Origin: a virus | Direction: 5' to 3' (one strand) | Virus genome (UHGV): UHGV-0136963 | DNA: 14,213 nucleotides | In this document: positions 2,764 to 14,162 of the stretch, piece after piece | Layout: each line of letters opens with the position of its first letter | Numbering within the stretch: the stretch's first letter is position 1 | Translations under genes and position numbers: made by a program | Notes under the pieces: model-generated | The model's input: the letters and a program-made list of their open reading frames with translations, nothing else | Database searches by the model: none | What the model was told of the DNA's origin: nothing

Positions 2764-4017
2764 ATGGCTAACCAATTAGCAAAAGACCTTGAAATCATGT
2801 TCGAAAACTACGTTGAAGGCTTTGAGGCCGCCTGCGTAGTTTCCCGTAACGCTAAAAAATTCCGTCCCGGTGATACAGCAATGCAGAGGGCAGGTGATGT
2901 TCTGTATCGTCCGCAGCATTACCACATGAACATTGAGGAAGGCCTAGACCTCAGCGGAAAAACGCCAACAGCACTTGTTCAGCGCCTTGTTCCTTCTGTG
3001 TTCAAGGAGCCGAAAAACATTCTGTACACTCTGGATGCGCGTGAAATGCGTGACCCGGAACATAAAACTGAAGCTGGTCGCGCCGCAGGTATGCGCCTTG
3101 CTGCACAGATTGACTCTGACCTGATTTCCATGGTCACGCAGCGTGCTACTAACGTGATCACAATGGCTGACTCAACCACAGGTACACAGGGCCGTGATTT
3201 GTGGAACTGTGCGGCAGGTATTGATGCCACTATGACGGCGATTGGTGTACCGCAGGGTATCAATCGTCGCTCTTTCTGGAACCCCTTCAACTACAAAGAC
3301 CTTGCTGGCGAGCTTGGTCACCGTGCCTATGCTCAGGGCGCAACCCTGACAGCATACGAAAAAGCGCAGATCCCTCCGGTTGCGTCCTTCGATAGCTACA
3401 AGACCGATATTTCTGGTCGTGTTCCGAAGGGTACAGCAACTTCCCTGACGCTGGCGGCTGAACCTGCGCACAAGGTTGAAGCGAAAGATGCCAACGATAT
3501 GCCAGTGGATAACCGACAGGGGACTATTACGGTATCTGCATCTGGGTTGCAGGTTGGCGATGCGTTCACCATTGCTGGCGTGAATTCTGTACACCAGATC
3601 ACCAAAGACACCACCGGGCAGCCGCAGGTATTCCGCGTTCTGGCAGTAAGCGGAACGACAGTAACTATCTCCCCGAAAATTCTGCCGCCTGACAACGCGG
3701 ATGTCGCCAGCCGACCATATGCAAACGTTGATGCTAACGCGGCAAATGGTGCAGCAATTACCATTCTCAACAAAAATGCCGCACCGGCTAACCTATTCTG
3801 GGCTGATGGTTCTGTTGAGCTGATGTACGGCAAACTGGCGTTCCCGACTGGTCAGGGTCCACAGGTAATGACAGCAACCACCGAGCAGGGCGCTACGCTG
3901 ATCATGTCTTACGCCTTCGACCACATCAAAGGCGTAACCACTGCTCGTTTCACCACTCTGTACGGTTGCTCTGTACTTGTTCCTGAATATACGGGCATCG
4001 TTATTGCCGGGCAGTAA
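2764..4017 (+). CDS. Major capsid (coat) protein, homologue of P22 gene 5
   Basis: 417 aa, directly after the scaffold gene, with GGAG 9 nt upstream of the ATG. Size matches P22-like coat proteins (P22 430 aa, Sf6 about 423 aa from memory). A strong terminator hairpin follows. Sequence is diverged from P22 coat, so the call is positional and size-based. Confidence 0.88.
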   Translation: MANQLAKDLEIMFENYVEGFEAACVVSRNAKKFRPGDTAMQRAGDVLYRPQHYHMNIEEGLDLSGKTPTALVQRLVPSVFKEPKNILYTLDAREMRDPEHKTEAGRAAGMRLAAQIDSDLISMVTQRATNVITMADSTTGTQGRDLWNCAAGIDATMTAIGVPQGINRRSFWNPFNYKDLAGELGHRAYAQGATLTAYEKAQIPPVASFDSYKTDISGRVPKGTATSLTLAAEPAHKVEAKDANDMPVDNRQGTITVSASGLQVGDAFTIAGVNSVHQITKDTTGQPQVFRVLAVSGTTVTISPKILPPDNADVASRPYANVDANAANGAAITILNKNAAPANLFWADGSVELMYGKLAFPTGQGPQVMTATTEQGATLIMSYAFDHIKGVTTARFTTLYGCSVLVPEYTGIVIAGQ

Positions 4018-8124: not shown

Positions 8125-9513
8125 ATGGCTACTTGGCAAGGATCAAATGGCGGATTGTTGGCTGGTATCGGCGGCGTCAACTCAAACGCTCCGAGCGTAA
8201 ATGACATCGGCAACACGCTTCAGCTTATCAGGCAGAACAATGATATTGAGCGTTCAGGCGCTAACAATGTTGGGCTGACAGCTTTGCAAGGTCTTTCTGG
8301 TATTGCGGGTGTTTTTCAGCAGGAAAAGCAGGCTCAGCGGCAGAAAGAATTTCAGCAGGCATACGCTAATGCTTATGCGTCTGGTGATCGCGGTGCTTTG
8401 CGTCAGTTGGCTACTCAATATCCAGACCAGATTGAATCTGTTCGTAAAGGCATGGGATTCATTGATGAAGACCAGCGCAATTCTATCGGCACCTTAGCGG
8501 CTGGCGCCCGCCTTGCATCATCGTCTCCAGAAGCAATGCAATCATGGCTGCAAAACAACGCCAAGGAACTGACTCGCGTCGGTGTTGACCCTAATAACGT
8601 TGCTCAGATGTATCAGCAGAACCCTTCAGGATTTGGTGAGTTTGTTGATCACCTTGGAATGGCTGCTCTTGGTCCGATTGATTACTTCAATGTTCAGGAC
8701 AAGATGGCTGGTCGTGAGATTGATCGCGGAAAACTTGCAGAGACAATCCGCAGCAATCAGGCTGGCGAGGCGCTAACAGCACGAGGCCAGAACATCACGA
8801 TGCGCGGTCAGGACTTATCTGCTTCTACTGCGCGACGCGGGCAGGATTTGGCAATGCAGCGAGCGTCAACAAGAGGAACCGCTGGGAATGATGAGCGTAC
8901 AGTTCAGTTATCAGATGGCAGAACTGTAACGGTAGGCGGTAAACTTCACGGCGCTGGTGCTAATGCGTTCTACGAAGGCATCGACAACGAGGGGAATATG
9001 GTTCGCGTTCCTGCCAGTTCAATCGCAGCGCCTGCAACATCGTCTGCATCAGCACAAAACTATGCCATGAAGAAGGATATCGACGCGATCGCAAATGCAG
9101 ACGCTTCTGCTCTCGATTTCATGACAGGAATGACAGGCGGTGCAGGTAATCCAGCAATTGGTGCTGATGTTCGCAGCCGATTAACAGGAAAAGAGCAGCG
9201 CCAGTTATATAACTCAGCACAACGTATTCAGGGCAGAATGCAGAATCAGGGTGTGGCGGCAGCAAGGGACATGGGTGCCAGTGGTATTAACACCGTTGCA
9301 GAAGCGAAGATGTATTTTCAGGGGATGCCGCAGGTTGACTATTCAAGCCCGGAGGCTATGCAGCAGTCGATTCGTGAAATTCAGGAATACACCAACAATT
9401 ACAACCAACAATATAACGTTAATGTTGGTAAATCTCAGCGGAAGCAATCTCAACCTGCACAGGTATCACAGCCAGCAGCCAGCAGTAACTTTTCTTCACT
9501 ATGGGGTGATTAA
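8125..9513 (+). CDS. Ejection (internal virion) protein, homologue of P22 gene 20
   Basis: 462 aa (P22 gp20 about 471 aa), between the gp7 and gp16 homologues. AGGGG RBS before the ATG. Q/N/G-rich, low-complexity composition typical of P22-like ejection proteins. Confidence 0.85.
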
Positions 9514-11792
9514 TGGCTAAAGCATGGAAAGATGTTATCGCCTCTCCACAGTATCAGGCGTTAGCACCAGAACAAAAAGCGCAGGCTCAGGAGCAATACT
9601 TCAATGAAGTCGTGGCCCCGCAAGCCGGAGAAAATGCAGAGCAGGCAAAACAAGCGTTTTACTCTGCTTACCCTAGAGGTCTGCTAGAGAAGGGTAATAT
9701 TGACATTCACAATCGGCCTGTTGTTAAAAACTCTGATGGCAGCATTAGCACTGTGCGGAGCATGTCTACCAATATAGATGGTAGAGAGGTGCTGATTCCT
9801 ACCGTTAGTGATGATGGTCGCATTATGTCTGATGATGAAGCTATTGATAACTTCATGAGGACGGGAAAGCATCTTGGTATGTTCGACAATCCTGACGATG
9901 CCACTGCATATGCGGAGAGTCTGCACAACCAGCAAGCTGATGAATACCTCCCTAGGAAGAATCAAGCTACACAACAGCCTGTACAGCAAAGTACACAGGC
10001 AGCGCCACAGCAGCAAGGAGGTTTCATTTCCGACCTTGGCAATGCCGCGGCTGAAACTGGTCGCGGACTGGTGCAGGCTGGCGTGAACGTGGCAAACATA
10101 CCTGCATCAGTTGCCGATGCTGTAACAAGTGCGGCTGCATGGGCTGGCGGTAAACTCGGCATTGGCGATGGTACATATCAACCAGCGCCACGAGTAACAA
10201 CGCAGGGATTAGAGCAGGACTTTGGCCTTCAGCAAGGCGCGCTGACTCCACAAACGACAGAGGGCAGGGTGTTTGCTGAAGCATTGCCTTACCTCACTCC
10301 TGCTGGCGTTGAGAGAGCGGCGGTACAGGCACCAACACTTGCTGGTCGAATTGCTCAGGGGGCAACACGACTTCTCGCAGAAAACGCAGTTGGATCACTT
10401 GCTGCAAATAGTGCGAAAGATGATGCGGAAGCCCTCGCCACCGATTTAGGCGTTGGTGTGCTGGCTGGCGGTGCTATTAACGCTGCCGGAAGTGGATTAG
10501 GTGCTGCTTATCGTGGCGTTCGTGGTGCTATTGCGCCAGAAGCGCAGCAGGCTATCAGATTTGCAGAGCGTGAAGGTGTTCCTCTGCACACCACAGACCT
10601 GTTACAACCCACTTCCCGCGTCGGAAAAATGGCGCAGACTACAGCAGAAAATATCCCTCTTGCTGGCACAAGCGGAATGAGAGCAACGCAACAGGAAGCG
10701 AGAAGCCAGCTGGTGCAGAGATTTGCCGATAAATTCGGTGAGTATGATCCAGCGGTTGTTATTGACAGCCTTAAAGCGAAAACATCAGGAATTCGTCGTG
10801 CCGCCGGTAATCGACTGGAGCAGGTTCAGAATGCTATGGCCGGAGTAAACATTCAGCCTGCGCGAGCAATTCAGCAGATTGATACAGAAATATCTAACCT
10901 GCAGAAGCTTGGTAAGGTTGCTGATAACGAGACTATTTCAAAACTTCAGTCATATCGTGATGAGCTTGTTCGCAATGCTGGCCCTGATGGTCCTGTAAAT
11001 CTGGATTTGAAGCAATTAAGCGACCTGCGCAGCCAGTTCAGAATGGACGTGAAGGGTGAACGACCAGTGTTACCAAACCGTTCCGATGCCGCCATTCAGC
11101 GCGTTTACAAGGCAATGACTGACGATATCAATGGTGCCATTGGTCAGAATCTTGGCAACGATACTCTCCGTAAATATCAGCAGGCCAATGCCGTCTACGC
11201 TGACGAAGCGGCGAAACTAAAGAATACCAGGCTGAAGAATGTTCTCATGAAAGGCGACCTGACGCCGGAAGTTGTCAACAACATGCTATTCAGCAAGAAC
11301 AAATCGGAAATTAAGACGCTGTATAACTCAGTTGGTCGTGTTGGCAGGGCGCAAATGCGCAATGGCATCATTGGAAAGGCGATGGAGAAATCAGGCGGAT
11401 CCCCTGACCAGTTCCTTCGACAGCTTAACATCCTGCAAAACCAGACTGGCATCACATTTAAAGGTCAGGACGCTGCTTATCTGAAAGGATTGAAAAATTA
11501 CCTTCAGTCCACGCAGCAGGCTGCAAAAGCGGCAGTAACAACACCAACAGGGCAGCAAACCATCCCGTTCATTATCGGATATGGGACAGCAATGAACCCT
11601 GCGACAACTGGCGCAGCGGTAAGCTACGGACTTCTTACTCGCGCCTATGAGAGCGAGCCATTCAGAAATGCAATGCTCCGAATGGCAAACACCCCACGCG
11701 GATCAACAGCGTTCGAGAAAGCCATGCAGCAGGCACAAAAGGCCATTAACGCCCTGACTCAGGGTACCAAGTCTGATGCGCTGTCAGAATAG
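9513..11792 (+). CDS. Ejection (DNA-transfer) protein, homologue of P22 gene 16, with about 150 extra residues
   Basis: 759 aa. The central and C-terminal parts (…NIPASVADAVTSAAAWAGGKLGIGDGTYQPAPR…GALTPQTTEGR…IPLAGTSGMRATQQEAR…TDDINGAIGQ…KGDLTPEVVNNMLFSKNKSE…GSPDQFLRQLNILQNQTGITFKG…) match P22 gp16 as recalled. P22 gp16 is about 609 aa from memory. The start overlaps the gp20 stop (TAATG). Confidence 0.9.
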   Translation: MAKAWKDVIASPQYQALAPEQKAQAQEQYFNEVVAPQAGENAEQAKQAFYSAYPRGLLEKGNIDIHNRPVVKNSDGSISTVRSMSTNIDGREVLIPTVSDDGRIMSDDEAIDNFMRTGKHLGMFDNPDDATAYAESLHNQQADEYLPRKNQATQQPVQQSTQAAPQQQGGFISDLGNAAAETGRGLVQAGVNVANIPASVADAVTSAAAWAGGKLGIGDGTYQPAPRVTTQGLEQDFGLQQGALTPQTTEGRVFAEALPYLTPAGVERAAVQAPTLAGRIAQGATRLLAENAVGSLAANSAKDDAEALATDLGVGVLAGGAINAAGSGLGAAYRGVRGAIAPEAQQAIRFAEREGVPLHTTDLLQPTSRVGKMAQTTAENIPLAGTSGMRATQQEARSQLVQRFADKFGEYDPAVVIDSLKAKTSGIRRAAGNRLEQVQNAMAGVNIQPARAIQQIDTEISNLQKLGKVADNETISKLQSYRDELVRNAGPDGPVNLDLKQLSDLRSQFRMDVKGERPVLPNRSDAAIQRVYKAMTDDINGAIGQNLGNDTLRKYQQANAVYADEAAKLKNTRLKNVLMKGDLTPEVVNNMLFSKNKSEIKTLYNSVGRVGRAQMRNGIIGKAMEKSGGSPDQFLRQLNILQNQTGITFKGQDAAYLKGLKNYLQSTQQAAKAAVTTPTGQQTIPFIIGYGTAMNPATTGAAVSYGLLTRAYESEPFRNAMLRMANTPRGSTAFEKAMQQAQKAINALTQGTKSDALSE

Positions 11793-11881
11793 CTTCGCAA
11801 ACACCAGGAACGTGCAAAAACCAAATATGTAGAACGCAATATTCAGCATATCTCTTTGCATAAATCCTCCGTAACTGATGG

Positions 11882-12145
11882 TTAACTGCTGTCTTTTTTA
11901 TATAGCTCCTTGAGCGTATCAAAGACAATTTTCTTAACCATATCAGATTGTTGTTCTGCCATACGCTCTGCATCGTCAATGTAAACTGATGCAGAGCTTT
12001 GTTTAGCCAATGATTCTTCAATCGCTGCAATTATCTCTGAGTTCAGCGACCTGTTATTCATTTTCGCGCGCTGTTTAATTTTCGCGTGGAGTTCATGCGG
12101 AAGTCTCAAGTGAAACTGCGCCTCGTCGTATTTGCTGTACATCAT
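11882..12145 (-). CDS. mnt: Mnt-like ribbon-helix-helix transcriptional repressor (Arc/Mnt family)
   Basis: The 87-aa product MMYSKYDEAQFHLRLPHELHAKIKQRAKMNNRSLNSEIIAAIEESLAKQSSASVYIDDAERMAEQQSDMVKKIVFDTLKELYKKDSS aligns along its length with P22 Mnt as recalled (…HFNFRMPMEVREKLKFRAEANGRSMNSELLQIVQDAL…NDAERLADEQSELVKKMVFDTLKDLYKKTT). I chose the ATGATG start at 12145/12142 because GGTGAGG lies 5-6 nt upstream; the ORF-track start at 12175 would add 10 residues with no RBS. Confidence 0.9.
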   Translation of the reverse strand: MMYSKYDEAQFHLRLPHELHAKIKQRAKMNNRSLNSEIIAAIEESLAKQSSASVYIDDAERMAEQQSDMVKKIVFDTLKELYKKDSS

Positions 12146-12263
12146 TGATGCCTCACCAGTTGGGTGGAATGGCATCGTAACCTACTGGATAAATACTCAA
12201 TAGTACCATTTCGGTATGCAATCACATCATGGTTGCATCATATCATTCGTCTGGAGCAATGAA
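12146..12263. promoter_or_regulatory. Divergent intergenic region between mnt and the tailspike gene; candidate mnt promoter and operator
   Basis: 118-bp non-coding gap between divergently oriented genes. It contains the inverted repeat ATGCAA (12216-12221) / TTGCAT (12233-12238) with an 11-bp spacer, each arm reading as a TTGCAT -35-like hexamer on one strand. On the minus strand TGgTACTAT is an extended -10-like element about 50 nt upstream of the mnt start. Also present: CCAGT (12156-12160) / ACTGG (12184-12188), and TACT-N4-AGTA (12194-12205). No experimental support. Confidence 0.35.
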
Positions 12264-14162
12264 ATGTCAGATATCACCGCAAATGTTGTGGTAAGCATGC
12301 CTTCGCAACTCTTCACTATGGCTCGTTCTTTTAAAGCCGTAGCCAATGGTAAAATTTATATCGGTAAAATTGACACTGACCCGGAAAACCCTGAAAACCA
12401 GATTCAGGTTTATGTGGAGAACGAAGACGGCTCTCACGTTCCTGTTTCGCAACCAATCATCATTAACGCTGCTGGTTACCCTGTATATAACGGACAGATT
12501 GCCAAGTTCGTAACTGTGCAAGGCCACTCTATGGCTGTTTATGATGCATATGGTGTGCAGCAGTTCTATTTTCCTAATTTACTGAAGTATGATCCTGATC
12601 AGTTGCGAGTTGATATTTCATCAAACAATGGAGATAAGATTGTCGGGAGCACATATGGTGGTAATGTTTATAGCGATTACATGCCATATGTATACAAAAA
12701 ATCTGGAGATATGTCAGTTGGCGGAGTGATATTAAATAAATACGAATCATTCAAATATTCAGATGGAATGTATTATTCATATATAGGAAATATACCAATT
12801 GATGGTTATATAGTTACGCCAGGCTCCACTCCAGACTCAACATGGGTGTGTGTTGGATTTCTTTCTGGGTATTCAGTAGATGACCCAAGAAATTACGGAG
12901 CAAAACCATGCGATCCAACATTCGACAGCTCTGATGCACTGGATTTGTGGAGAGATAGTATAATCAAGAGAAATCGCAAAACAACTTACTCAACTGATAG
13001 AGAAGATCCAAACATGTACAATTTGGGTGGCACTGTTTTTGATATGACTCAGGGCACTTACTATGTATCACGTCCATTTACAATAACAGATTGTTTGAAT
13101 TTTTCTATGTTGAATCCATCTCTTTTAGCAATTGGAGCATTTCCTTCGACAGAACCTGTTCTAGATTTTCGTAAAGTTAACGGCTCTAGACCAATTGAAA
13201 ACATCGTGGTATTTAATCCTAATATCGATGCTAACTGGAAAGCTTCCGGCGCAATTAGGGTTTATGATGACTTTTTGAAAGTGACTATATGGGGAGGTCT
13301 ACTGACAAGATACTTGCGTTATGGATTAAAGACTGAACCAAATGACTCACAGCCACATGAATTAAATGTGGGAAAAACTTTTATATTTCAACAACCAGAT
13401 TGGAATGCTTCTTACCCAACTAACGTTACAGATGGCGTTGGCTTGGATATCAACAACTATGATAATAACTTCTCAGACTTAGTTATTGGTTCACAGTATG
13501 CAGATGTTATGTATTTACGTAAAGGAGCAAATTCTTTTAGTAATAGTCATTTTTATCCAAATCAGTCTGCTGATAGCGCAAAAGGGCGTGTGGTTATAAT
13601 GTCTAACGCAGATATTTTTGTTGGATGCTATTTCGATGGATGCTTAATTGAATCAAACTCAGACGGTGCGAGATTTACTGTTAGCTCATGCAACTGGTTA
13701 GTACCTGAACATGGAGTTGCAATAAATCTTATATCAAATCCGTTTCAGGTTAAGATAACAGGTTGCAGATTCCGTAATACAACGGGAACTGTAATGCCAC
13801 TTAGCGTTATTCGCATGAAGACCATAGCAGAAGGAAGATCATCCAGGCCAGATATAAGAAACAACTTTTCTGAAGGTTGCCAATCTATATCAACATCAGG
13901 TAGGGAGTTTTTCACACTAACAGTATCTGGATCGTCAAGGGTTGTAACAAGAGCAATACCAGATCAATTCCAGCCAGCAAATACAGTATCAATTCAGGAG
14001 GTAGCAGCAAACACAAACGATGATACATGGCTTATAAAAGCTAGATTAATTAGTTCAAGCCAAGTAAGGATCAGGCCATACAATATGGATACAGGGTGGT
14101 CATCACAAGCAACGTATTCAGGTCAGGTTGTACTTATTTATAATTCAGAAAATGACATGTAA
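12264..14162 (+). CDS. Tailspike protein, homologue of P22 gene 9; P22-like head-binding domain plus a divergent receptor-binding domain
   Basis: 632 aa. N-terminus [97 protein letters not shown]…LKYDPDQ is near-identical to the P22 tailspike head-binding domain ([40 protein letters not shown]…). Start placed at the ATG at 12264 (GGAG 8 nt upstream) rather than the ORF-track ATG at 12216. The remainder does not resemble the P22 receptor-binding domain. Confidence 0.93.

Follow-up and report, generated by a model that had tools for sequence, protein, structure and literature searches.

The DNA analysed here (the window) is a stretch of 14,213 nucleotides from the virus genome UHGV-0136963, and represents the late region of a P22-like (Lederbergvirus) prophage. 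Over positions 11700-12500, the closest phages are IME10 (96%) and Sf101 (95%). In the part considered below, a gene-16-like ejection protein gene on the plus strand is followed by an mnt gene reading leftward and then by the tailspike gene, again on the plus strand. The block composed of mnt, the intergenic interval and the start of the tailspike gene is present in approximately 250 of 5426 complete E. coli genomes (~5%); that of E. coli W (NC_017635) is 98% identical to the window over 11880-12300. The gene-16-like open reading frame (9513..11792), the last late gene before the mnt cassette, encodes a DNA-transfer/ejection protein, aligned relatives of which are annotated either as DNA transfer protein or as lytic transglycosylase domain protein.

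The mnt-like repressor gene occupies 11882..12145 on the minus strand and encodes 86-87 amino acids. Its product matches the Pfam families Arc (7.8e-15) and Repressor_Mnt (3.4e-14) and, in the PDB, the solved Mnt repressor 1mnt (3.5e-19) and 1qey (1.7e-8). These matches include both parts of the Mnt architecture, that is, the ribbon-helix-helix N-terminal domain and the C-terminal tetramerisation coiled coil. The ATG at 12142 is conserved and an additional ATG lies at 12145; the reading frame continues to 12175, and this portion is unused in relatives. In RefSeq, mnt homologues carry the label 'partition protein ATPase'. The Shine-Dalgarno sequence, read as GGTGAGG at 12151..12157 on the minus strand, is kept in relatives. 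It lies in a nested inverted repeat (12147..12176; outer arms GATGCC and GGCATC enclosing CACC-N5-GGTG) that reaches from the ribosome site to the -10 homologue of Pmnt described below. The Gally and L Mnt classes keep the outer arms, and the right arm in Serratia, AGCATC, is one base off. When the minus-strand RNA is folded at this repeat, the mnt Shine-Dalgarno sequence is sequestered (z = -2.64). No recognisable terminator was found for mnt in the window, so that its mRNA could run antisense into gene 16.

The tailspike gene (12264..14162, plus strand) encodes a P22 gp9-type head-binding N-terminal domain (Pfam Head_binding, 5.3e-66, residues 1-113). Its translation signals, read from the sequence, are GGAG at 12253-12256 and the start codon ATG at 12264-12266 (12253..12266 together), and the block TCTGGAGCAA..ATG is kept across P22-like tailspike leaders. 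An in-frame ATG also exists upstream, at 12216. The start at 12264 is indicated by the Head_binding match, which begins at residue 1, and by the relatives, which begin MTDITANV... at the same position. The preliminary description of this DNA was right in labelling the two genes mnt and tailspike, and also in regarding the in-frame extension 12216-12263 as noncoding.

The region between gene 16 and the tailspike gene has been called the 'ant moron' (Villafane et al. 2008, PMC2629481). In P22, it affects the late transcription that reaches the tailspike gene, and Mnt and Arc may contribute to this effect (PMC2629481). Versions containing only mnt were found in ST64T, ST104 and Para1 (Villafane et al. 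2008, PMC2629481), and the mnt-only ant morons of ST64T, ST104 and L have been described (PMC2629481; Zaworski et al. 2020, PMC8022706). To these, the window adds a new member with a different Mnt specificity class and a different leader. Among its open reading frames, neither arc nor ant is present downstream of the operator, and the tailspike gene starts 46 nt past that site; Sf101 likewise has no ant in this region. An Rfam scan of 11700-12400 with E values up to 10 returned only chance-level eukaryotic families and no match to the sar RNA. As in ST64T, ST104 and L, mnt lies without arc and ant in antisense orientation between the ejection genes and the tailspike gene, and the cassette has kept a palindromic operator-like site together with a putative Pmnt-like promoter. 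In contrast to those phages, the window encodes an Mnt of another specificity class (~49% identity to P22 Mnt), lacks an orf62-type gene and has the type A hairpin (see below) instead of CCGTAGC-CAT-GCTGCGG. The type of region is ordinary and already described for P22-like phages; the value of the analysis lies in the correct annotation of a common E. coli/Shigella prophage region, with the tailspike start at 12264, an Mnt-type repressor and a probable operator at 12202-12218.

In the curated P22 record, Pant (TTGACA-17-TATATT), Pmnt (TTGAGA-17-TATCAT, on the opposite strand), Oarc and Omnt are located between mnt and arc. The window resembles this immI region in several respects: Mnt has the same fold and tetramerisation tail, mnt reads leftward between gene 16 and the tailspike gene, a 17-bp palindrome stands right after CTCAATAG, and a -10-like hexamer lies 28 nt from the mnt ATG. 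It differs from P22 in lacking arc, ant, sar, Oarc, Tant and a strong Pant, in the sequence of the operator (TACC-N5-GGTA versus GGTCCAC-G-GTGGACC), in the recognition strand of Mnt (AQFHLRL versus PHFNFRM), and in that the operator directly abuts the tailspike leader.

The palindrome, AGTACCATTTCGGTATG at 12202..12218 (core TACC-N5-GGTA, centre 12210), was recognised as the Mnt operator homologue by alignment with P22 immI and by its conservation. Positions 12196-12218 consist of CTCAATAG plus the palindrome, exactly as in the alignment with annotated P22, where Omnt directly follows CTCAATAG; P22 reads ...TATATTCTCAATAGGTCCACGGTGGACCTG and the window reads ...AAATACTCAATAGTACCATTTCGGTATGCAA. 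CTCAATAG, present in both, corresponds to the Pmnt -35 hexamer read on the opposite strand. A set of 94 loci including the window, collected from viral contigs and from E. coli, Escherichia sp., Buttiauxella, Serratia and Citrobacter genomes, yielded 61 distinct intergenic variants. The intergenic types have everything up to GGTATG(C/T)AA in common and then diverge: type A, to which the window belongs, continues with TCACATCATGGTTGCATCATATCATTCG, and type B continues with the P22 gene 9 leader, which contains the hairpin CCGTAGC-CAT-GCTGCGG. The sequence GTACC(A/G)TTT(C/A/T)GGTAT is kept in nearly all 61 variants, including the Serratia, Citrobacter and Buttiauxella relatives. Symmetry is higher in some variants, with 6 of 8 pairs symmetric in CGTACCGTTTCGGTATG and perfect arms of 6 bp in ATACCATTTTGGTAT. 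The 73 matches to CGTACCRTTTMGGTATG in viral contigs show the order mnt / operator / tailspike leader wherever the context is of phage type, and in none of them does a window-type operator precede arc or ant. In the complete Sf101 genome, the operator occurs only once.

The synonymous sites of mnt are saturated when the window is compared with JEP4, VSe13 or Serratia (dS 1.4-2.7), and dN/dS in the DNA-binding ribbon-helix-helix domain is 0.01-0.07. Since dN/dS is low and the operator is conserved despite this saturation, the repressor and its site are under constraint and not decaying. In addition, three classes of Mnt N-terminus pair with three palindromes at the same position: the PHFNFRM class (P22, epsilon34) with GGTCCAC-G-GTGGACC, the PQFNLRL class (Gally, L) with AGACCAC-N-GTGGTCT, and the AQFHLRL class of the window type with a GTACC-N5-GGTAC-like palindrome. 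In Arc and Mnt, residues of the N-terminal beta-strand set the operator specificity, and the pairing of classes with palindromes fits this rule. The interval very probably contains an Mnt operator, at 12202-12218. The earlier suggestion that Mnt may bind in this region is therefore probably right with respect to this predicted operator; the arms of the inverted repeat are unlike the operator half-sites.

Promoters were scored with our own hexamer position weight matrix, which was built from consensus frequencies and is approximate. As a control, it recovered Pant (17.3) and Pmnt (13.5) of P22 as the two top hits. In shuffled sequences of the same length, the median best score was 9.7 and the 95th percentile was 13.0. 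The best score in the interval, 9.5, is below this median and belongs to an extended -10-like element, TGATATGAT, on the minus strand (12237..12245), of which the divergent locus L014 keeps TATGAT and loses the TG. Since all scores in the interval lie within the shuffle null, no promoter is callable here from the sequence, and the promoter pair proposed in the preliminary description is not borne out by prediction. The only site that a simple consensus scan gave in the interval, CTGACA-17-AATGAT on the minus strand, was judged to be a chance match: its -35 hexamer consists of the first codons of the tailspike gene and is unconserved in type B. A LexA box (CTGT-N8-ACAA), as seen in type B, is inapplicable to the window, which has CTGG..TCAA.

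By position relative to P22, the Pmnt homologue of the window lies at 12174..12200 on the minus strand, with the -10 hexamer TACGAT at 12179..12174 and the -35 hexamer TTGAGT at 12200..12195. The -10 hexamer stands 28 nt from the mnt ATG, as does TATCAT in P22. The score of this site is low (6.5, within noise) because the spacer is 15 nt. The homologous sites have 17-nt spacers in the mnt-only relatives Gally (TTGAGG-17-TAAGAT, 9.4) and L (TTGTGG-17-TATGAT, 8.8), as well as in type B and Serratia (TTGTTG-17-TACGAT, 8.1); this site is the top-scoring one in type B, Gally and L and the second in the Serratia locus L017. The matrix found no comparable rightward promoter in these mnt-only relatives. 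In the interval there is no strong Pant-like rightward promoter, the best plus-strand site being ATGGCA-17-AATACT with a score of 7.0, versus 17.3 for Pant of P22.

For the tailspike gene, the simplest account is that it would be expressed by read-through of the late operon, with no need for a promoter of its own. P22, HK620, CUS-3 and epsilon34 have the ant terminator between gene 16 and the tailspike gene. The window has no terminator-like site on the plus strand from gene 16 to the tailspike ATG at 12264, and late-operon read-through can therefore express the tailspike. The claim that a rightward promoter in the interval drives the tailspike gene directly finds no strong plus-strand candidate to attach to.

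Comparison with P22 and the collected relatives shows the 118-bp interval (12146-12263) to be an immI-derived control region, reduced to mnt and its predicted operator and fused to a tailspike leader. From 12146 to 12218 (the left two thirds), the interval is what remains of a P22 immI-type control region with mnt as its only gene, and comprises the ribosome site of mnt, a leftward Pmnt homologue by position and the 17-bp palindromic operator homologue; the strong rightward Pant, arc, ant and sar are gone. The right third (12216-12263) is the 5' leader of the tailspike gene. The likeness to P22 immI noted earlier thus stands with respect to the descent of the interval. It does not extend to the inverted repeat, which is not an equivalent of the overlapping Pant/Pmnt pair: the operator homologue and the Pmnt hexamer homologues all lie to the left of it, and no more than 3 nt of its first arm are shared with the operator.

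The inverted repeat itself is present as reported, with the core arms ATGCAA at 12216-12221 and TTGCAT at 12233-12238 separated by 11 nt. It extends to ATGCAATCA-CATCA-TGGTTGCAT (12216..12238), that is, to arms of 9 nt at 12216-12224 and 12230-12238, of which 8/9 positions are complementary, with a gap of 5 nt. The single mismatch between the arms is T.G, which is a wobble pair in plus-strand RNA, and a perfect 9/9 form, TGATTGCAT, occurs in IME10 and several contigs. When 12146-12263 was shuffled 2000 times with its dinucleotides preserved, 41% of the shuffles had a perfect inverted repeat of 6 nt or more, 19% had one of 9 nt or more with at most one mismatch, and 1% had a perfect 9-mer. As an observation on a single sequence, the repeat is not above chance. 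It is unique in the Sf101 genome, and second copies of the operator or the repeat beyond chance were found neither in the window nor in the whole Sf101 genome. The repeat was also considered as an intrinsic terminator and rejected: there is no terminator-like site on either strand and no U run, the stem being followed by CATATCATTCG.

In an alignment of 16 variants of the repeat, 97.2% of the cells are paired, with one double change and six further pair types, and one arm pair occurs as U.G, U-A and C-G within type A. The transitions C4>U, C8>U and A9>G, which are combined in the variant L329, give wobble pairs on the plus strand only. In the divergent L014, a compensatory double change from G-C to U-A leaves a stem of 7 bp in unchanged register. 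Two of the arm changes break a pair. Altogether, plus-strand pairing is preserved in six of the eight arm substitution events (binomial P = 0.0075-0.035, according to how strong a transition bias is assumed), and minus-strand pairing or DNA symmetry in only two. The shuffle controls are no more than mildly favourable, with 13/500 for the percentage paired and 34/500 for the covariation score, the latter based on one double change and a handful of substitutions that are possibly not independent. The stem is short, and folding of the 80-nt leader is not better than that of shuffled sequences (z = -1.08). The pattern of arm variation favours a plus-strand RNA hairpin, with thin support.

Other tailspike leaders provide a further comparison. 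The hairpin ends 25 nt before the ATG in type A, 27 nt in type B and 25 nt in Sf6 (CCGGACA/TGTCCGG), and these three leader types are unrelated. In the leaders L211 and L252 the hairpin is truncated, so that a leader hairpin is not universal. Between Sf6 and contig L253, three differences in the CCGGACA stem are wobble-compatible on the plus strand only. In the P22-type leader hairpin, we found one-sided changes only, with no double changes and no statistical support for covariation. The literature searched contained no documented function for such tailspike-leader hairpins.

Sf6 and L253 have no mnt, and yet they carry (A/G)TGCAAT-N8-(G/A)GTTGCATC; L253 has exactly ATGCAA-N11-TTGCAT, and both have the post-gene-16 spacer of the window in common. 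The arms therefore belong to an Sf6-like tailspike leader. The window resembles Sf6-type leaders in this spacer, in the (A/G)TGCAAT-N8-(G/A)GTTGCATC sequence, in the Shine-Dalgarno/ATG block and in a hairpin ending 25 nt before the ATG. It differs from Sf6 in that the latter has no mnt cassette and forms the stable hairpin CCGGACA/TGTCCGG with the TTGCAT arm in its loop, whereas the window has the inner pairs TCA/TGG and the type-specific CATATCATTCG.

We consider that the repeat is best explained as an RNA hairpin of the tailspike leader that abuts the conserved Mnt operator inside an mnt-only ant moron, and give this reading a probability of about 0.5. The tailspike gene would be transcribed within the late operon, by transcription reading through the antisense mnt cassette, and Mnt would bind at 12202-12218 and control its own promoter. 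In the plus-strand RNA, the two arms would pair into a stem of 9 bp with a loop of 5 nt, and the end of this hairpin would lie 25 nt before the ATG of the tailspike gene. As a guess, such a hairpin might stabilise or insulate the ribosome-binding region.

An alternative is that the repeat is a functionless scar of a recent recombination, in which an mnt cassette (...GGTATGCAA) was joined to an Sf6-like leader (ATGCAAT...GTTGCATC) via microhomology. The joining as such is part of both readings: as judged from the alignments, the left arm is the microhomology that connects the two pieces. A type A/type B mosaic breakpoint lies at 12218-12221, the left flank after gene 16 is common to Sf6 up to TTTGCATA, and in CUS-3 the annotation places boundary sequences ahead of the tailspike gene. 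That the repeat is within chance expectation and that type A sequences are 95-100% identical, with little evolutionary depth, also suit a recent scar. Against a scar stand the bias of arm substitutions toward preserved pairs, the in-register stem of L014, and the unrelated hairpins that other leader types have at an equal distance from the ATG. We regard a mere scar as possible, if on balance unlikely.

The preliminary description interpreted the arms differently, as the -35 elements of two divergent promoters, one transcribing mnt leftward and the other the tailspike gene rightward, with Mnt acting at the repeat between them. TTGCAT matches the consensus TTGACA at 3/6 positions (TTG only). 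For the right arm there is no -10 partner: at spacings of 16, 17 and 18 nt the hexamers are AGCAAT, GCAATG and CAATGA, with scores of 1.3, -2.6 and 0.4. A -10 element at the required spacing would fall on the Shine-Dalgarno sequence and start codon of the tailspike gene, and the transcript would thus lack the ribosome site and start at or after the ATG. The left arm is the better candidate, since it gives TTGCAT-17-GAGTAT with a score of 7.0, places the operator exactly in the spacer, and would produce a transcript containing the leader hairpin that sequesters the mnt Shine-Dalgarno sequence. Moreover, GGTATG(C/T)AA is kept past the palindrome core in all relatives, so that the minus strand always reads TT(G/A)(C/A)AT. 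However, 98% of shuffles match or exceed the score of 7.0, and the -10 hexamer GAGTAT is not kept in the type B relatives, where its counterpart GTTGAT lacks the essential A. Moreover, type B relatives share the Mnt N-terminus of the window and lack the right arm, Sf6-like phages carry both arms in the absence of an mnt gene to be transcribed, and the homologues of P22 Pmnt and Omnt are found on the left side of the repeat. Given the 15-nt spacer and weak score of the Pmnt homologue, the mnt gene could be transcribed from a promoter located elsewhere in this type of interval, including one at the left arm, but a divergent pair as described is improbable, and most likely the repeat is neither a promoter element nor an Mnt binding site.

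The remaining reading, that a dimeric protein recognises the repeat in the DNA, either as a second Mnt operator or as the target of another phage or host regulator, draws on the conserved arms, which in the window type, Sf6 and L253 keep a fixed 11-bp spacing while the centre varies (a pattern that fits two half-sites), on derived alleles that make the palindrome perfect (TGATTGCAT and ATGCAACCA) and on a local enrichment of TTGCAT (4 of the 10 copies in the window lie within 11668-12238), but is very improbable given that the arms are unlike the operator half-site GTACC, that C4>T, C8>T and A9>G break the DNA symmetry and keep plus-strand RNA pairing, that Sf101 has no second copy and no candidate binding protein was found, and that type B, with the same Mnt recognition strand (identical N-terminus), lacks the repeat, which is therefore unneeded for Mnt function.

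A separate matter is why the cassette persists. Many P22-like phages retain mnt after losing the antirepressor that Mnt controls in P22, and whether mnt has a new role in mnt-only morons or is a remnant has already been asked in the literature (PMC2629481; PMC8022706). One possibility is that the cassette is a selected stand-alone module, in which an Mnt of new specificity gates late transcription or translation into the tailspike gene, or protects the lysogen. In this reading, the operator lies 46 nt before the tailspike ATG and adjoins the leader hairpin, and either Mnt or the convergent mnt transcript, running on for lack of a terminator, might gate the late-operon output that reaches the tailspike gene; alternatively, it might protect the lysogen in trans against related superinfecting phages, like the antisense RNA of BTP1. 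That RNA, STnc6030, is expressed leftward in lysogens of the P22-like prophage BTP1 across the gene-16/tailspike junction (Owen et al. 2020, PMC7067206); it is non-coding, starts inside the tailspike gene and acts in superinfection exclusion (PMC7067206). A leftward transcript across the same junction is possible for the window's mnt mRNA, for which STnc6030 is a precedent and not evidence; BTP1 was the only P22-like prophage for which we found transcript data. We consider the stand-alone module doubtful, with a small chance of being correct. The facts compatible with it are the strong purifying selection on Mnt, the invariable mnt/operator/leader arrangement and the occurrence in about 5% of complete E. 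coli genomes. The combination of a constrained Mnt DNA-binding domain and an operator that always lies against the tailspike leader makes the question of retention testable.

The mnt gene, which encodes the Mnt-like repressor and is read leftward (11882-12145), is followed on the minus strand by no terminator-like structure at window 11793-11881 and leftward, the nearest candidates lying at about 10120-9963. Since no such structure follows the mnt stop codon, mnt transcripts could run on and overlap the gene-16 homologue in antisense at its 3' end; a possible antisense transcript of this kind is reminiscent of STnc6030, the antisense RNA of the P22-like prophage BTP1 (PMC7067206).

At the other end of the gene, a nested inverted repeat, GATGCC-[TCACC-AGTTG-GGTGG-AAT]-GGCATC, extends from the mnt Shine-Dalgarno sequence to the homologue of the Pmnt -10 element (window 12147-12176). 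In the minus-strand RNA the repeat has a folding z of -2.64, and the Shine-Dalgarno sequence and start codon of mnt are buried in the fold, the 5' arm of which would lie outside any transcript begun at the P22-homologous promoter. The outer arms are kept in mnt-only regions of the Gally/L class and differ by one base in Serratia, where the right arm reads AGCATC; P22 and epsilon34 are without them.

The top promoter-like score of the interval, 9.5, which is within noise, belongs to an extended -10-like element on the minus strand, TGATATGAT (12237-12245). If this were a promoter, its leftward start would fall within the ATGCAA/TTGCAT repeat of 12216-12238, and the putative Mnt operator would be located at about +20. 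The divergent L014 retains the TATGAT of the element and not the TG. Across the window, TTGCAT/ATGCAA is rarer than expected (10 copies observed versus 17.8 expected), and 4 of the 10 copies, at 11668, 11856, 12216 and 12233, are found inside the 570 bp around the mnt cassette (11668-12238), an observation made post hoc.

In relatives with the P22-type tailspike leader (type B), the place of the former -10 element of Pant, the rightward promoter of P22 immI, is occupied by a LexA-box-like sequence, CTGTACAAATCAACAA (CTGT-N8-ACAG with one mismatch; for example, about 3310-3330 of locus L009, equivalent to window 12183-12200), the Serratia counterpart of which is CTGTATAAACCAACAA. A LexA box at 12183-12200 of the window itself was rejected: the sequence there, CTGGATAAATACTCAA, does not fit.

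In Serratia marcescens (L017, JADMXW010000031; mnt at 786-1040), two elements lie beyond the operator about 200 nt upstream of mnt, on the opposite strand: the hairpin ACCACG-N9-CGTGGT comes first, and GCCAGCC-TAACC-GCTGGC-TTTTTTT, a strong terminator, comes next. The part beyond the operator contains no ORF and may represent a short non-coding transcript remaining at the former site of arc-ant. The mnt homologue of a Citrobacter sp. (L018) has an in-frame stop at codon 5 (MYSK*DEAQ...) and is the sole disrupted copy among the relatives examined.

In E. coli 23CRST042 (L012, 3394-3990), an HNH endonuclease gene is inserted on the opposite strand directly after the first five tailspike codons (ATGTCAGATATCACC...). 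The tailspike that follows this gene is a different one, and its leader has a hairpin of its own, AGCAAT-GAAT-ATTGCT, placed 24 nt upstream of the ATG. Because the same insertion is present in L015, L023, L069 and L075, and further loci change sequence at this very point, a recombination boundary slightly inside the tailspike 5' end is suggested. In L171, L078 and L006 (JEP4), a remnant of the truncated tailspike start, ATGACAGATATTATAAATAGG..., precedes an AT-rich insert and then a tailspike ORF, which has an in-frame N-terminal extension, MLHGFKMNRRLFFKTIASLSAVIPFSS, ahead of MPDITPNVV. This extension looks like a twin-arginine signal, or it may be merely upstream in-frame sequence.

In RefSeq, Mnt homologues (NC_027398 Sf101 gp14, NC_002371 P22 mnt and others) are labeled 'partition protein ATPase', a name at odds with the Pfam and PDB matches; Sf101 gp13 is labeled 'lytic tail fiber protein'.
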